27,354 nucleotides of DNA from a virus. Lineage: Duplodnaviria; Caudoviricetes. The position numbers and the translations under genes were made by a program. This document shows positions 478-5,440 of this stretch, in pieces. A model generated the notes under the pieces. That model worked only from the letters and a program-made list of their open reading frames with translations, searched no databases and had not been told where the DNA came from. The stretch is taken from the IMG/VR virus record IMGVR_UViG_3300031689_000043, positions 1-27,354 of that record. The stretch is one strand, 5' to 3'. The stretch's first letter is position 1, and each line of letters begins with the position of its first letter.

Positions 478-1312
478 AGTTACGTATAGCTTTGAATAGC
501 GGGTGACGATAAGAACCTGCTGGAGTTTTTTGGAAGAAAGTGAACGTTGCTACTTTGCCGACATAATCATTAGCGTTGGCAAACATAGTACGCATGATGT
601 CATAATTTTCCATGACAGGCATGCCAAAAGTAATACCATTGCTATCAATAGCCATGAATTTGCCAATAGTACCGCTTCGCTTACCTTTTCCTTCGACGAA
701 GCCAGTGATTGTTGCTTCTGTGTCTTGGAAAGCTTTGAACTTGAGTAAGTTGTTTGATCGTTTGTTTTCATAAGGTAAGTTTGTACGCAGTATAGAGCCT
801 TCGTAGCCTGCTTTTAAGTTTTGGTTATTGAATATAGTAGCTAAGCCTTTGTTAGGTGTTAGCGTGGTTGGTACAGTATGCACTTGAGGCAAACCTTTAG
901 CCATAGTACGTATGCATCTGTTGCGGTAGTCGTACGAGTGACTGTTAGTTGTTTGGATATAATCATAGCAATGGAACTGAATAAGAGTTTGATCTTTAGT
1001 AGCACGCTGAGTACGTACAAGAGATATAATCTTATTGAAGTTATTTTTGAATTCATGATTGTATAGCTCGCCATCGAGCACAACAGTTGGGTTGGCAACG
1101 AAGAAAGGTTTTAGCTGACGACGTAAGTGCTGTACGTTTTTGAACTTTTTACCGCTGCGACTGTATGCGCCTTGCTTTGTGAACAAGCAGCGTACGCCGT
1201 CAAGCTTAGGTTGTAAGAACATAGTTTGATTCCAGTTGATAGCTTTTTTTTGTTGTGCGAATGCAAGCATTGCAAATTTACCTTGTTTAATTAAATCCGT
1301 CATATTCATCAT
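470..1312 (-). CDS. lig: ATP-dependent DNA ligase (minimal nucleotidyltransferase plus OB domain)
   Basis: Motif I QPKLDGVR (KxDG), motif III LDGELY, motif IV EGSILR, motif V LLKFK, C-terminal RHPLF; the true start may be 1303. Confidence 0.93.
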   Translation of the reverse strand: MMNMTDLIKQGKFAMLAFAQQKKAINWNQTMFLQPKLDGVRCLFTKQGAYSRSGKKFKNVQHLRRQLKPFFVANPTVVLDGELYNHEFKNNFNKIISLVRTQRATKDQTLIQFHCYDYIQTTNSHSYDYRNRCIRTMAKGLPQVHTVPTTLTPNKGLATIFNNQNLKAGYEGSILRTNLPYENKRSNNLLKFKAFQDTEATITGFVEGKGKRSGTIGKFMAIDSNGITFGMPVMENYDIMRTMFANANDYVGKVATFTFFQKTPAGSYRHPLFKAIRNYE

Positions 1313-1574
1313 TTAGTTTTTGTATTTTTCTTTTTATTATGTGTGCTTTTTCGAAAGCTTCTTCTTGTATGTATCTATCTAGTAGGCTTTGCAACCTTAT
1401 AAGTTCTAGCTCTATTGATTGTCTTGCTAGATCTTCTGTATCATTGATCATTAAGTCATCTGGGTTTTCTTTGCCATCGAAGACTAGATGAACTTCTGAT
1501 GATATATTGAATATAGCTTTGATAACTTTAGTAGCTACACGCACTGCTAGATCATCCATTTGTTTGTCTGTCAT
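1287..1574 (-). CDS. hypothetical protein with a UvrB/UvrC-like C-terminal coiled motif
   Basis: ORF track; C-terminus LDRYIQEEAFEKAHIIKRKIQKL resembles the UVR motif (E.FE.A..I...I); starts just after repeat copy 1. Confidence 0.7.
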   Translation of the reverse strand: MTDKQMDDLAVRVATKVIKAIFNISSEVHLVFDGKENPDDLMINDTEDLARQSIELELIRLQSLLDRYIQEEAFEKAHIIKRKIQKLNDEYDGFN

Positions 1575-1577
1575 ATA

Positions 1578-1609
1578 TATTATCCTTTATTGTTCGTATT
1601 TACTTTGTA
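1578..1609 (-). promoter_or_regulatory. bipartite repeat copy 1 (putative phage early promoter)
   Basis: Plus strand tattatcc-N8-tcgtatttactttgta; one of six copies with an invariant 8-nt spacer length. Confidence 0.75.
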
Positions 1610-1749
1610 TGTTGATTAAGAATATGTAGCATTATCTGCTTAGCTGAACCTTGAACAGCTTCATTAGAACCTTGTTCGTTAATATAGTTTAGCGTGTATG
1701 AATAAGGCTTATAAGGCCTTTTAGGTGGATTGTATTTATTTTCTGCCAT
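1600..1749 (-). CDS. hypothetical protein (49 aa, MAENKYNPPK...NQHTK)
   Basis: The ORF track start at 1809 lies inside tRNA-Gln, so the ATG at 1749 is preferred; stop codon lies inside repeat copy 1. Confidence 0.6.
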   Translation of the reverse strand: MAENKYNPPKRPYKPYSYTLNYINEQGSNEAVQGSAKQIMLHILNQHTK

Positions 1750-1769
1750 AGTATATAGTTTAATGTTAG

Positions 1770-1842
1770 TTGGTCTACTAGGGCTCGAACCTAGACTCTT
1801 CTGGACCAAAACCAGACGTGTTACCGGTTACACCATAGACCA
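1770..1842 (-). tRNA. tRNA-Gln (TTG)
   Basis: Acceptor TGGTCTA/TAGACCA, D arm GTGT/ACAC, anticodon arm TCTGG-TT TTG GT-CCAGA, T arm CTAGG-TTCGAGC-CCTAG; CCA not encoded. Confidence 0.95.
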
Positions 1843-1849
1843 ATTTAAA

Positions 1850-2068
1850 TTAGTAAATCTGACAGACTTCGTCTTGTTCGTTTAAAAAAGCTATATGATT
1901 CCATAGCTCTAAATCACGTTCTTTAAAACTTATTTGCCCATCAATCATATCTTGAGTATAAGCAAAGTAAGGGATTGTCTCGTCTAAAGATTTAATCTCT
2001 ATCTTTAATGTTGCTATCATTGCAAATGCTTTGTTGTATATTCTGTCTTTTCTTTCTTGTTGTTTCAT
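1850..2068 (-). CDS. hypothetical protein (72 aa)
   Basis: ORF track; tight packing with neighbours. Confidence 0.65.
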   Translation of the reverse strand: MKQQERKDRIYNKAFAMIATLKIEIKSLDETIPYFAYTQDMIDGQISFKERDLELWNHIAFLNEQDEVCQIY

Positions 2069-2069
2069 A

Positions 2070-2156
2070 TTATTTTTCGTGTTGATCTATAAGTAGATTT
2101 GCTACTTCAATTGTTATTATATTATCGCTGTACAGTTGGAATATTAACTTTCTCAT
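2070..2156 (-). CDS. hypothetical mini-protein (28 aa, MRKLIFQLYSDNNITIEVANLLIDQHEK)
   Basis: Manual translation; ATGA overlap with the upstream gene and ends 1 nt before the next start. Confidence 0.5.
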   Translation of the reverse strand: MRKLIFQLYSDNIITIEVANLLIDQHEK

Positions 2157-2350
2157 TGTCCTATGTATGTTAAACCCTTGTGATTAAACCAAGATTTAAT
2201 ACCTGGAGTGTTTTCTACTTCGCCAAACTCGTTTATGTCTTCTACTGTAATATAAGCAAATGTAGGAGGTAGATCGCCGACTAAATAGCCTTTGTAAGAT
2301 TTACCATTAAGTTTGATTCTAGTTTTGTTTACTTTTTTTAGTTTGTTCAT
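2153..2350 (-). CDS. hypothetical protein (65 aa)
   Basis: ORF track; ATGA overlaps at both ends. Confidence 0.7.
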   Translation of the reverse strand: MNKLKKVNKTRIKLNGKSYKGYLVGDLPPTFAYITVEDINEFGEVENTPGIKSWFNHKGLTYIGQ

Positions 2351-2457
2351 TTTAATCCGTATTCGTTAATAAGTTTGTTTTTAGTAATGTTAAGCATTTT
2401 GCTTATCTCTGTCAAGCTCTTGTTATCGAGCAAGTATAATCGCCATGGTTCATTCAT
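2347..2457 (-). CDS. hypothetical mini-protein (36 aa, MNEPWRLYLLDNKSLTEISKMLNITKNKLINEYGLK; HTH-like segment)
   Basis: Manual translation; ATG abuts repeat copy 2; TGA overlaps the ATG at 2350. Confidence 0.5.
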   Translation of the reverse strand: MNEPWRLYLLDNKSLTEISKMLNITKNKLINEYGLK

Positions 2458-2488
2458 ATTATCCTATTGTTTTCGTATTTAGTTTGTA
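2457..2488 (-). promoter_or_regulatory. bipartite repeat copy 2
   Basis: tattatcc-N8-tcgtatttagtttgta, directly 3' of tRNA-Gly. Confidence 0.75.
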
Positions 2489-2493
2489 AGTTG

Positions 2494-2564
2494 AGCGAGA
2501 TACAGGAATCGAACCTGTTTGGTTGCCTTGGAAGGGCAATGCATAACCATTCTGCCAATCTCGC
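2494..2564 (-). tRNA. tRNA-Gly (TCC)
   Basis: Acceptor GCGAGAT/ATCTCGC with U73, anticodon arm TTGCC-CT TCC AA-GGCAA, T arm ACAGG-TTCGATT-CCTGT; CCA not encoded. Confidence 0.95.
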
Positions 2565-2569
2565 TTTAG

Positions 2570-2687
2570 GCGCAAGAGCGGGATTTGAACCCGCTAGATT
2601 ATAACCTAGCCTCTCTATGCTATTACGTAATTCACATATCGTGCATCATAAGCTATAACGTTTTACCTTTTATAAACTACCTTGCGC
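2570..2687 (-). ncRNA. tRNA-like RNA A (118 nt) with a His-type G-1:C73 acceptor and an expanded anticodon arm
   Basis: 8-bp acceptor GCGCAAGG/TCTTGCGC, TA at positions 8-9, D stem GTTT/AAAC with GG in the loop, stem TTATA/TATAA enclosing 50 nt instead of 7, T arm GCGGG-TTCAAAT-CCCGC; ends 5 nt before tRNA-Gly. Confidence 0.8.
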
Positions 2688-2701
2688 TGACGTTAATGTT
2701 T

Positions 2702-2803
2702 TTATTCCTCTTCATCTCTACAGTCTCCACAGATGTCGCAAAATTCATAATCTTCTACGCTCATATATTTACTGCAGAACTCACATGTATAATTAGTATC
2801 CAT
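2702..2803 (-). CDS. small Cys-rich acidic protein (33 aa, CxxC...CxxCxxC)
   Basis: Manual translation MDTNYTCEFCSKYMSVEDYEFCDICGDCRDEEE; fills the gap between ORF 2793-3149 and RNA A. Confidence 0.6.
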   Translation of the reverse strand: MDTNYTCEFCSKYMSVEDYEFCDICGDCRDEEE

Positions 2804-3149
2804 CATCGAAGCTGTCTTGTCTACCCCATTTACCTTCTTCGCTAGCTAGATACTCTGACCTTGCTTTGTCACGCTTTAAAGTTTTAGTGAAGTTCATTTC
2901 GTGATTAGTTATGTACTCAGCCATCTCTACACTGTCACATGATAGTGAAACGTAAGAGCTTTGAGAGCCGCTGTGTAAGACTAAAGTGTTCTTAGGACTA
3001 TTAGTATTGGCTTCTGAATAAAGCCCTTTAGAGCCTCTGTATAAGCTCCAACACTTATTACCGTTTTTACTGTTGTGATAAGCTGGCCACACGCCTGACA
3101 TTACGTCTTCAGCTATCATTTGATTCATTAAATTTCTTTTGATTCTCAT
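2793..3149 (-). CDS. hypothetical protein (118 aa)
   Basis: ORF track; starts 13 nt after repeat copy 3. Confidence 0.75.
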   Translation of the reverse strand: MRIKRNLMNQMIAEDVMSGVWPAYHNSKNGNKCWSLYRGSKGLYSEANTNSPKNTLVLHSGSQSSYVSLSCDSVEMAEYITNHEMNFTKTLKRDKARSEYLASEEGKWGRQDSFDDGY

Positions 3150-3162
3150 ATATTGTTTATTA

Positions 3163-3194
3163 TATTATCCACTTGTACTCGTATTTACTTTGTA
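3163..3194 (-). promoter_or_regulatory. bipartite repeat copy 3
   Basis: tattatcc-N8-tcgtatttactttgta. Confidence 0.75.
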
Positions 3195-3409
3195 AAAAGC
3201 TCTCTGTTTTTAGTATCATTAAAATTCCAGTGATTGCCTTTAGAGTGGGTTCTACGCGTTCTAGATTTAATTCTATCAACTTCCATAGACTGTTCAAACT
3301 CTTTTTGTGTAAAGCCTTGACAGTGATTGCCTTGACGATCTTTATTCCATTGAGCTACTTTGATTCGCTTGTTATCTATCATGTATTGTTTAAGTTCTGT
3401 CATATTCAT
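3185..3409 (-). CDS. hypothetical protein (74 aa, ends TK inside repeat copy 3)
   Basis: ORF track; stop TAA provided by the repeat. Confidence 0.7.
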   Translation of the reverse strand: MNMTELKQYMIDNKRIKVAQWNKDRQGNHCQGFTQKEFEQSMEVDRIKSRTRRTHSKGNHWNFNDTKNRELFTK

Positions 3410-3463
3410 ATTGTTCTGGTTTTTGGTTTGTTAAAAAAGTTACTGTGTCTTAGTTTAAATTTT

Positions 3464-3562
3464 CTACTCATATAAGTTTTCGTATTGTTGTTGTTGTAAG
3501 TAAATTTCTAGCTCTGCATCTAGTAGCATATTGTATTGCGCTATTATGTCTTCGTTTTTCAT
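3464..3562 (-). CDS. hypothetical mini-protein (32 aa, MKNEDIIAQYNMLLDAELEIYLQQQQYENLYE)
   Basis: Manual translation; starts 1 nt after the upstream stop. Confidence 0.45.
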   Translation of the reverse strand: MKNEDIIAQYNMLLDAELEIYLQQQQYENLYE

Positions 3563-3563
3563 A

Positions 3564-3725
3564 TTACTTGGTTAGATTTGATTTAAAATATTCTCTTGCT
3601 TCATCTAGTGTTTCTTTAGGAAAATGCTCTCTAAAGCCATTATAAATGTAATTTACTTTGCCATCTATGTTTAGTAGCTTGATCTTGTCTGTTCTGTCTA
3701 GTATTTCTATTTGTTTGTCTGTCAT
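3564..3725 (-). CDS. hypothetical protein (53 aa, MTDKQIEILDR...)
   Basis: ORF track gives 3564-3791; the ATG at 3725 directly follows the upstream stop at 3727 and is preferred. Confidence 0.6.
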   Translation of the reverse strand: MTDKQIEILDRTDKIKLLNIDGKVNYIYNGFREHFPKETLDEAREYFKSNLTK

Positions 3726-3726
3726 A

Positions 3727-3978
3727 TTATGCTGTGTATAAATCGTATAGTGCGCAAAATGCTGCTTGTTCGTAACTTTTAGCTTGACCAAATTCGTGTT
3801 CTTGAAATATGTCGTAATCTAAATCGTTTATAATTTGCTTACAAGTCGATGTATATATCACCATAGTGTCTATGACTTCATGTAAATAATCGTAATGATT
3901 ATCTTCGTTAACCTCATAATCGCTTAATGCTTCTTGCATTTGATGTAAGTACTCGTTTGGTGTTTGTATTTGATTCAT
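3727..3978 (-). CDS. hypothetical acidic protein (83 aa)
   Basis: ORF track; strongly D/E-rich; first gene after repeat copy 4. Confidence 0.75.
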   Translation of the reverse strand: MNQIQTPNEYLHQMQEALSDYEVNEDNHYDYLHEVIDTMVIYTSTCKQIINDLDYDIFQEHEFGQAKSYEQAAFCALYDLYTA

Positions 3979-3993
3979 ATTGTTTGTTTATTA

Positions 3994-4025
3994 TATTATC
4001 CGTTTATTATCGTATTTACTTTGTA
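3994..4025 (-). promoter_or_regulatory. bipartite repeat copy 4
   Basis: tattatcc-N8-tcgtatttactttgta. Confidence 0.75.
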
Positions 4026-4246
4026 AGTATGTGAGCAAAAAACTCTGATCTTACAACATCTGTATTAGTCCATTCATTAAATGGATTGAAAGATTCTAAG
4101 TAGAAATTAAAAAGATCTTCCTCATTTCCTTCAAGTACTAATGTATCTAATCCATCAGCGCTCGCATACGCAACTAATTTTACTTTGCGATCATATAATT
4201 GCTCGAGTGTGTTCTGTAAGTCTACAGTGTCTATTTCTATTTGCAT
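4016..4246 (-). CDS. hypothetical acidic protein (76 aa, ends TK inside repeat copy 4)
   Basis: ORF track; stop TAA provided by the repeat. Confidence 0.7.
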   Translation of the reverse strand: MQIEIDTVDLQNTLEQLYDRKVKLVAYASADGLDTLVLEGNEEDLFNFYLESFNPFNEWTNTDVVRSEFFAHILTK

Positions 4247-4328
4247 AATAATGTTTTTAATTCTTTTTGTAACTGTAATAATTGTTTTCTACTGGTTAAG
4301 CAAAATCTACTTCTTGTAGATAAATAAC

Positions 4329-4457
4329 CTATACGCTTGCGATATTCCTTTTCCATATTTTGATTTGTGTTAAGCATTCTTGTAAGCTAATCGTATCTAA
4401 GTTAAAACCTTTTTTTACTAAGTAGATTTCAAACTTCTTGTCGTAGATGTTATTCAT
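4329..4457 (-). CDS. hypothetical mini-protein (42 aa, MNNIYDKKFEIYLVKKG...)
   Basis: Manual translation; starts 3 nt after the upstream stop; a further 39-aa ORF (4237-4356) may follow. Confidence 0.45.
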   Translation of the reverse strand: MNNIYDKKFEIYLVKKGFNLDTISLQECLTQIKIWKRNIASV

Positions 4458-4460
4458 AAT

Positions 4461-4595
4461 TTACTTTTTTAAGTTGTGTAATAACAGTTTAATAACTGCT
4501 TTTTGTTCATCACTGCTACATGTATCATAGCCAAATTCGCCGAAGTGTACTTCTGCTAGACGATCCATTTCGCCTACAAATTCTATTGCATTCAT
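4461..4595 (-). CDS. hypothetical protein (44 aa, MNAIEFVGEMDRLAEVHFGEFGYDTC...)
   Basis: The ORF track start at 4643 lies inside RNA B; the ATG at 4595 with an A-rich leader is preferred. Confidence 0.6.
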   Translation of the reverse strand: MNAIEFVGEMDRLAEVHFGEFGYDTCSSDEQKAVIKLLLHNLKK

Positions 4596-4609
4596 ATTTA
4601 TAATTTTAG

Positions 4610-4717
4610 TTGAGTGAGAAAGAATCGAACTTTCTAGACACATCGACGGAACTATTTTTTATATGCAAGTTTCTCAAACTTACTAGCTATCGTGGTTTAC
4701 ACTAATCCATTCACTCA
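4610..4717 (-). ncRNA. tRNA-like RNA B (108 nt) with an expanded, branched anticodon arm
   Basis: Perfect 7-bp acceptor TGAGTGA/TCACTCA, T arm GAAAG-TTCGATT-CTTTC, weak D-like arm TGG..CCA, 49-nt central domain (CGAT/GTCG, AGCTA/TAGTT, hairpin GTAAGTTT/AAACTTGC); 3' trailer A-CTAA as in tRNA-Gln. Confidence 0.72.
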
Positions 4718-4770
4718 TTTTTCATTGATTAATATTGTAGAGGCAATCAATTTTATAAAACTCTCACTAG

Positions 4771-4802
4771 TATTATCCAGCTATACTCGTACTTACTTTG
4801 TA
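4771..4802 (-). promoter_or_regulatory. bipartite repeat copy 5
   Basis: tattatcc-N8-tcgtacttactttgta; followed by RNA B rather than by a start codon. Confidence 0.75.
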
Positions 4803-4949
4803 AAGCCATTCTTCTATAGTTTCATTGTAAAGCATTTCTATCTTACTAGCTTTCATTATAACTATTTCTTTAGCTATCTGCTTTTCGCTACCATAATAGC
4901 TTTCATTCATTTTCGCTAATTCTAGCTTAGCTAAGTTTTGTATAGTCAT
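4773..4949 (-). CDS. hypothetical protein (58 aa, MTIQNLAKLELAKMNESYYG...STSIAG)
   Basis: Manual translation; first ORF of the module; stops at the TAA of the GGATAA box in copy 5. Confidence 0.5.
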   Translation of the reverse strand: MTIQNLAKLELAKMNESYYGSEKQIAKEIVIMKASKIEMLYNETIEEWLYKVSTSIAG

Positions 4950-4994
4950 TGTAGTGATATTAGGTGTAAGAGCTTCGTTGCTTGCTTACATATA

Positions 4995-5026
4995 TATTAT
5001 CCATATGATATCGTATTTAGTTTGTA
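4995..5026 (-). promoter_or_regulatory. bipartite repeat copy 6 (most upstream)
   Basis: tattatcc-N8-tcgtatttagtttgta at the edge of the non-coding region. Confidence 0.75.
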
Positions 5027-5077
5027 TAAAGGTGTGTATATATTTAATTATAGAATAGTATTGAAGAGTATAACACT

Positions 5078-5105
5078 ATGACATAATGTCATGACACAGT
5101 GTCAT
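5078..5105. promoter_or_regulatory. two overlapping palindromes ATGACA-N3-TGTCAT (operator-like)
   Basis: ATGACATAATGTCAT at 5078-5092 and ATGACACAGTGTCAT at 5091-5105. Confidence 0.6.
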
Positions 5106-5394
5106 ATGATATATACTATAGATTAAGATGATAGTAGTGTAGTGTAGTATAGTTTAAACTAATAGTAGTAGTATAATGTAAAGTTATAGAACATATAACT
5201 ATATAAATATAAATTATAGTAGAGAAACCATGAATATATAGGGGGTATAACCATGAAAAGCCGAAACCTAAGGCGAAAAACATGAAAAAGATGGGGGGCT
5301 GGGGGAAAAGGAAACCATTCTGTAACTGGCTGACTACTAGTGATATAGAGGTATAAGACTTTACTTCCCTATAATAGCATGCCGGACATATAGG

Positions 5395-5440
5395 TAGTGA
5401 CAGTAGCCTATTAAGGTTACTAGTAAGGGGCTATTGTCAC
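5395..5440. repeat. inverted repeat GTGACAGTAGCC-N20-GGCTATTGTCAC; the arm recurs at 14-33
   Basis: Arms at 5397-5408 and 5429-5440 (11/12 match); 5395-5414 matches the reverse complement of 14-33 at 19/20. Confidence 0.8.

Follow-up and report, generated by a model that had tools for sequence, protein, structure and literature searches.

The window, the whole 27354 nt stretch of DNA analysed here, is a linear virus record that is 44% complete, and a PHROGs scan of 36 ORFs identified virion proteins, a holin, GroEL/GroES and an ATP-dependent ligase. Small ORFs on the minus strand form an array at ~1300–4950; it includes tRNA-Gln and tRNA-Gly genes and is punctuated by six copies of a 39 nt repeat (1576–1614, 2455–2493, 3161–3199, 3992–4030, 4769–4807 and 4993–5031), which presumably fits neither the canonical sigma-70 spacing nor the Bacteroidota consensus. 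The early cassettes seem to have been shuffled at the repeat copies among relatives. The whole early region is bracketed by a 20 nt inverted repeat (95%; 14–33 and 5395–5414), and the segment between 5050 and 5520, which separates divergent gene blocks, is low-coding and AT-rich.

An SD-like motif was found at two of the 38 listed starts, and A was present at -3 in 30 and at -11 in 30 (one start is mis-indexed). The scarcity of SD-like motifs together with the A residues would fit a Bacteroidota host, this phylum being described in PMC6847099 as lacking SD sequences. Protein similarity does not single out one host, with GroEL at 39–41% to Flavobacterium phages, the ligase at no more than 34%, and the tail protein similar to those of Pelagibacter and others.

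The element under study, RNA B, starts 53–54 nt beyond the end of one repeat copy, matching the 53 nt given in the first-pass annotation, which was made from the sequence alone. That annotation had treated the promoter-like motif as RNA B's own; however, the inferred promoter occurs six times in the window and is therefore not special to RNA B. The features of the locus are listed in the table.

Table. Features of the early region around RNA B (window coordinates)
Feature	Position	Strand	Remarks
RNA A, separate tRNA-like RNA	2570..2687	-	real D arm and 85 nt centre; directly before tRNA-Gly
Downstream 44 aa ORF	4461..4595	-	start 14 nt past discriminator; kept behind B1, B2 and minimal alleles
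CTAA trailer	4606..4609	-	without encoded CCA, as in phage tRNA-Gln
RNA B, tRNA top-half mimic with 76 nt centre	4610..4717	-	U1 at 4717, discriminator A73 at 4610
T arm	4618..4634	-	B1 and B2 differ at both positions of three of the five pairs
Swappable central module	4635..4706	-	interrupted helix, 5 bp helix, 8 bp hairpin (4683–4665), A-rich strand (4664–4655)
ATGG linker, predicted G18/G19 equivalent	4707..4710	-	putative docking on T loop
Acceptor 5' strand	4711..4717	-	pairs with 4611–4617
Leader RNA, predicted H-type pseudoknot	4724..4764	-	8 bp stem and 4 bp invariant stem
Early-repeat copy, putative promoter	4769..4807	-	GATAAT box at ~4772–4777
Upstream 58 aa ORF, synteny anchor	4773..4949	-	

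All seven acceptor pairs of RNA B (4717–4711/4617–4611) are Watson-Crick, including U1:A72, G2:C71 and A3:U70, the T stem is paired at five of five positions, and the T loop reads TTCGATT (4629–4623). Two tRNA hallmarks, a 7 bp acceptor and a T arm with a TTCRA loop, are thus present. The 7 bp acceptor, the TTCGATT T arm and the ACTAA shared with tRNA-Gln had been noted from the sequence alone and were recovered on the minus strand, and the 49 nt domain (4692–4644) contains the 8 bp hairpin and A-rich linker as described. An anticodon is absent, and there is no 5 bp anticodon stem with a 7 nt loop. Behind the acceptor lies a stemless D loop with GG, followed by a long interrupted helix as in the tRNA-like domain (TLD) layout, while the enclosure of an expanded, anticodon-less centre by acceptor and T arm is the layout of rnaC. 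As in t-elements, a T-arm motif occurs in a non-decoding fold that abuts neighbouring RNAs. The strand order is normal rather than permuted as in YrlA.

No tRNA match at RNA B was obtained with default ARAGORN or in an Rfam scan that included RF00005, the RF00023 (tmRNA) covariance model gave no match there and no tag reading frame was found, and no YrlA match was obtained with Rfam (E≤1). When the window was simulated 300 times with an order-2 Markov model, no perfect B-type element arose, and a relaxed rule gave eight elements in the 300; the real window contains three strict elements (RNA B and two tRNAs), with RNA A added under the relaxed rule. The whole-molecule folding energy of RNA B is ordinary (z -1.2; 25 of 200 shuffles as good), so the support for RNA B comes from motif and covariation, not stability.

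The slot was examined in related DNA using the 58 aa ORF upstream of RNA B as synteny anchor, which yielded 47 metagenome and 3 viral loci. As one of these 50 (L097) is the window's sequence and some others are near-copies, the slot counts are not independent events. The leader was missing within covered DNA in eight loci, and the other 42 contain 46 leader copies, 45 of which are followed by a tRNA-like element of one of four kinds. A minimal form of 39–40 nt, made up of a 6–7 bp acceptor, a 9–10 nt linker and a T arm with no centre, follows 21 of the 46 copies; B2, which is homologous to RNA B and has an 83 nt centre, follows 12, the window type, B1, with its 76 nt centre, follows eight, and a form with a 46 nt centre follows four. 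The remaining copy, in the close relative L117, is followed by an unrelated hairpin. Loci L101 and L102 carry the minimal form despite flanks almost identical to those of the window.

Comparison of B1 with B2 covered 32 pairs in seven distinct sequences, in effect two alleles. Four pairs differ on both sides (three in the T stem and one in the outer central helix), seven are altered on one side and still paired, and two are broken in some rows. These changes indicate that the centre of RNA B is a maintained structure, yet one that is dispensable for the slot. The first-pass annotation had named translation of a frame from 4643 through the element as grounds for rejecting it; this frame is not conserved, its ATG being absent from B2 and the minimal alleles, and the ORF start at 4595 is kept.

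With introns allowed, ARAGORN called a tRNA-Thr(agt) with a 15 nt intron at RNA B, which would make the element an intron-interrupted tRNA-Thr(AGT) or a decaying tRNA pseudogene. This reading is scarcely credible and was largely refuted by the alleles: the putative anticodon stem has one mismatch in B1 and two in eight of the 12 B2 alleles, the region is missing in the minimal alleles, and there is no D stem, the 2 bp GG/CC of B1 being lost in B2 and having no counterpart in the minimal forms. The stems covary rather than decay, and neither default ARAGORN nor Rfam gives a tRNA.

A pattern scan of viral sequences for the minimal form identified 60 loci, 59 of which pair at all eight pattern-free positions. 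Among 25 distinct sequences with a 9 nt linker, nine of 12 pairs covary, with changes on both sides, and in slid-register controls the paired fraction drops to 28–49%; pair 7:66 is mismatched in 18 of the 25. These homologues with compensatory changes bear out the earlier proposal of a class of phage tRNA-mimic RNAs. Pair 3:70 is AU, UA or CG, and the freedom of pairs 3–6 to vary suggests that no synthetase identity is retained. The fixed features are the linker GG (25/25), G53:C61, TTCGATT, an 11–12 bp stack and a CTA trailer, all of a kind by which RNase P, RNase Z and the CCA-adding enzyme recognize their substrates.

Searching for the scaffold together with a centre returned 66 loci, of which 19 pair in the B-family register. 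Fifteen of these share one 44 nt centre, two have a 47 nt centre, one has another, and one is a hybrid of the 5' acceptor strand of RNA B and a centre resembling the 46 nt one; the other loci belong to a sister class described below or are ordinary tRNAs or chance matches. A viral-contig scan for B-like long forms gave 10 loci, none of them B-like. The centre of RNA B had no viral matches, a profile search of 717 kb found nothing outside the B scaffold, and no antisense match to it longer than 11 nt was present in the window. The minimal-form model matched only the 3' half of RNA B in the window (E 0.007), hence the link of RNA B to the family is based on synteny and shared motifs. No full match to the element was found in cultured phages, and it was absent from both Flavobacterium phages tested (immuto_3-5A and elemoC_15-9A). 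Six matches were found in bacterial genomes, two of them unpaired; the four that fold, on contigs of 1.4–6.7 kb from unrelated assembled genomes, are probably phage DNA. In the relatives, no Rfam family was matched by the minimal forms, the centres, the leaders or a 27 nt module considered below.

RNA B is therefore a real, conserved and uncatalogued tRNA-mimic family with an exchangeable centre, and the window contains the long version of this conserved phage element, which consists of acceptor stem, GG linker and T arm with a centre that is either missing or 39–83 nt long. Portability is seen for other centres only, not for RNA B's own.

RNA A had been assigned the same expanded-anticodon architecture as RNA B. 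This is not supported, as RNA A has a 4 bp D stem, found also in a partly covered homologue with a different centre (L129 and L131, near 5110), whereas RNA B has no conserved one, and the commonest relatives of RNA B lack any central arm. The ATAGCT and TCTAG motifs said to be shared are present in both RNAs of the window, but ATAGCT is missing from eight of the 12 B2 alleles and TCTAG from all of them. The two RNAs are two classes within one broader toolkit. The RNA A slot is occupied by a TLD-like RNA with G3·U70 in L127 and L146, and RNA A may have a His-like extra G:C pair on top of the acceptor.

RNAs with G3·U70 form the sister class, which was found at 47 viral loci (38 distinct sequences), with G3·U70 in 46 of the 47 in clear register. 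They are TLD-like, with a fixed D loop, an AAC connector (47/47, fixed by the search pattern), a highly variable 41–87 nt centre and no tag frame, and on the tmRNA model they score E 7.5e-11 and 35.4 bits, below the cut-off of 47. Examples are L127:5042–5120, L013:6002–6073 and L239–L285, and the position is often directly before tRNA-Met. By analogy with the DS6A RNA discussed below, they are likely alanine-chargeable SmpB decoys. Many phages carry both this class and that of RNA B. Yet another class of tRNA-like RNA was seen at L016:5999–6088, L017:5979–6075 and L023:227–312; its 3' connector is fixed and its centre, of 57–68 nt, is variable.

RNA B could itself be viewed as a shrunken tmRNA, in which the A-rich strand precedes a resume codon. 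The layout is TLD-like, and the A-rich strand ending in UAG might resemble the resume region of tmRNA. However, A3:U70 stands in place of G3:U70, a pair whose absence, with that of a tag frame, the first-pass annotation had already noted, RF00023 gives no match, the UAG sits in a helix backed by a one-sided change, and the frame after it stops after three codons in B2 and crosses the T arm in B1. This origin is very unlikely.

The main alternative, though less likely than not, is that the matured top half is the effector, an uncharged and non-decoding decoy. It would titrate a host protein that recognizes the elbow or acceptor end of tRNA, such as SmpB or a defence toxin attacking tRNAs, and the centre would serve only to tune it. 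No other form is as common as the empty one (21 of 46 leader copies; 59 loci), whose linker looks as if the central helix had been removed from the G3·U70 sister class, a class that scores on the tmRNA model. A TLD-only RNA of phage DS6A is described as inhibiting tmRNA in Escherichia coli (in the relevant part of PMC11915505), and a similar molecule as inhibiting it whether charged or not, perhaps by titrating SmpB (PMC4131195, relevant passages). Against this, RNA B lacks both G3·U70 and the AAC connector of the 47 sister-class matches, the abutting leader pseudoknots and portable modules are left unexplained, and the presence of both classes in many phages suggests separate jobs. As a decoy would need processing too, this alternative is compatible with the scaffold explanation given below.

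The 41 nt leader between the repeat and RNA B ends 6 nt upstream of the latter, and in most loci the structured leader ends 2–8 nt upstream of the element. In eight leader sequences two compensatory pairs were found in the 8 bp stem, and the 4 bp stem is invariant. An H-type pseudoknot ending no more than 8 nt upstream of the element was detected in 36 of 60 distinct contexts, which are related and of which 24 fail the descriptor, compared with 74 of 600 shuffles (12%) and 23 of 335 offset positions (7%). The upstream pseudoknots fall into about five sequence families. They may resemble type III antitoxin or preQ1 pseudoknots, for which Rfam gives no support, and those of the minimal elements had no Rfam match among those scanned. 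Several families of small H-type pseudoknots with an A-rich loop 3 and compensatory changes were seen upstream of the minimal elements in L004, L006, L013, L014, L028, L035, L040, L046 and L050.

On the other side of the element, the distance from the predicted cut to the downstream ATG is 14–15 nt in 10 of 13 RNA B contexts (the other three have no ORF within covered DNA), 14–15 nt for the form with the 46 nt centre and 13–22 nt in 49 of 69 minimal contexts. Type I hammerheads, identified by pattern from core and stems, lie directly behind the promoter repeat in close relatives (L127:2857–2935; L101, L102, L106, L114, L119, L128, L129, L131–L133, L138, L143 and L146), and their predicted cut is 14–17 nt from an ATG in 12 of 14. 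The candidate hammerhead has compensatory substitutions in stem II and a long loop on stem III, and it matches RAGATH-1-hammerhead weakly (E 0.25). Its position is promoter-proximal, analogous to but not exactly the slot of RNA B, and in L127 and L146 a hammerhead is followed in series by leader and minimal mimic.

These distances raise the possibility that the element acts only in cis, a cut or stable fold determining where the message of the downstream gene begins, how stable it is or how it is translated, with the excised RNA as waste. The fixed 14–15 nt gap to the start codon is matched by the hammerheads before similar genes, and hammerheads flanking phage genes, such as ardA, are described in the relevant passages of PMC3088659. 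However, true tRNAs in these regions lie 14–22 nt before an ATG in nine of 18 contexts and promoter-to-ATG gaps are mostly 14–20 nt, so that the spacing is weak evidence; it may be the room that any A-rich initiation region needs. The same downstream ORF is often found directly behind the promoter without an element (L106, L116 and L119–L122), and a mere cut site would not need structured centres of 39–83 nt that are kept with covariation. A role confined to cis is accordingly improbable.

One central module is not confined to the tRNA-like scaffold. This 27 nt module was found both in a tRNA-like scaffold (L035/L160 and L162) and in the stem III loop of a hammerhead (L163 and close relatives), and also, nearly unchanged, on free or terminator-like hairpins or other stems (L168–L172). 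Eight of the 14 matches in the module scan are genuine, and the other six are unrelated and apparently coding. The invariant module has the look of an aptamer or decoy that can be moved between contexts, and the stems closing it are of five kinds (tRNA-like scaffold, hammerhead, free hairpin, terminator-like hairpin and larger fold).

The explanation that we favour, and to which we give an even chance, is a tRNA-shaped scaffold that tRNA-maturing enzymes of the host would excise from the early transcript. Transcription would start at the repeat, and a predicted RNase P cut at 4717 would fix the 3' end of the leader pseudoknot RNA. RNase Z or trimming, followed by CCA addition as for the CCA-less tRNAs of the phage, would then mature the 3' end, freeing an uncharged RNA of ~110 nt with the central module on display, and the downstream mRNA would retain a short, A-rich 5' leader. 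Small RNAs released in this way probably act early, as effectors of host takeover. More tentatively, the phages may possess a natural tRNA-scaffold expression system, in which host tRNA-maturing enzymes, hammerheads and terminators release from early transcripts a library of swappable structured RNAs, anti-host or anti-defence effectors that would diversify as early proteins do; the 39–40 nt empty form would then be a natural minihelix-like tRNA mimic.

Parts of positions 1700–5200 are contained in 17 of the 20 RNA runs listed, which are labelled seawater or marine. In contigs of four RNA runs the early region of related strains is covered, with 4514–4650 uncovered; ends and strand are invisible in these contigs, which are possibly DNA. 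One RNA-run contig, which may also be DNA, extends into the T arm of the form with the 46 nt centre.

Among known RNAs, RNA B has the build of a TLD-only RNA and may act in the manner of T4 rnaC or a t-element, but it does not fit tRNA, tmRNA or YrlA. In a comparison of folds only, T4 rnaC (species 1 RNA; NC_000866.4, coordinates 70908–71046) shares with it the 3' T arm and acceptor-like closure, and long hairpins replace the D and anticodon arms as the centre does in RNA B. However, rnaC is part of a tRNA cluster and counts as a late RNA, whereas RNA B follows a promoter repeat in a region of small early genes and has a perfect acceptor and relatives with no or other centres. The function of rnaC is given as not known in the relevant section of PMC9697503. 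In the parts of PMC4131195 and PMC11915505 that describe them, the TLD-only tmRNA of mycobacteriophage DS6A and organelle tmRNAs without a CDS have the acceptor, stemless D loop with GG and T arm of RNA B, and likewise no anticodon or tag frame. RNA B differs from them in having A3:U70 and no tmRNA model match, and the sister class is closer to them.

The mascRNA of MALAT1 is also a non-decoding tRNA-like processing fold. Plant mitochondrial t-elements, as described in the relevant passages of PMC1920247, likewise fold as tRNAs without decoding; RNase P and RNase Z are recruited to them and cut there, setting mRNA ends; for RNA B such cleavage is only predicted. Unlike RNA B, t-elements and mascRNA are eukaryotic, organelle or nuclear, and carry no swappable cargo. 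Phage hammerheads would cut polycistronic transcripts beside small genes, as RNA B would (Perreault et al. 2011, PMC3088659, relevant passages), but they are self-cleaving and of unrelated fold, whereas RNA B would depend on enzymes of the host. RNA B has normal strand order and no YrlA match in Rfam, in contrast to the permuted YrlA with its Ro60-binding stem. YrlA is described, as a bacterial Y RNA, as a tRNA mimic in bacteria and phages (PMC4201824). No description of the B family was found in the literature searched, which covered few subscription journals; supplements of PMC5737381 or the tmRNA database could list relatives.

Anticodon-less phage tRNA look-alikes such as T4 rnaC and the DS6A RNA have had no clear job for decades. 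The slot of RNA B offers a natural allelic series (empty, 46, 76 and 83 nt centres, with the G3·U70 sister nearby), which makes the roles of scaffold and centre directly testable. If the modules are effectors, host takeover would have an RNA component, concealed in phage early regions and overlooked by gene callers, tRNA finders and Rfam alike.

Minimal mimics were also seen beyond the group of 60–70 kb phages, in L034 and L084 (154–160 kb phages), L066 (GC-rich) and L151. The one in L034 lies near a tRNA cluster that also contains a D-arm element without an anticodon arm (1960–2018). A 371 kb phage has a tRNA-like gene (L096:1206–1322, minus strand) that resembles RNA A in plan: its D arm is normal and its anticodon arm carries a long insert.
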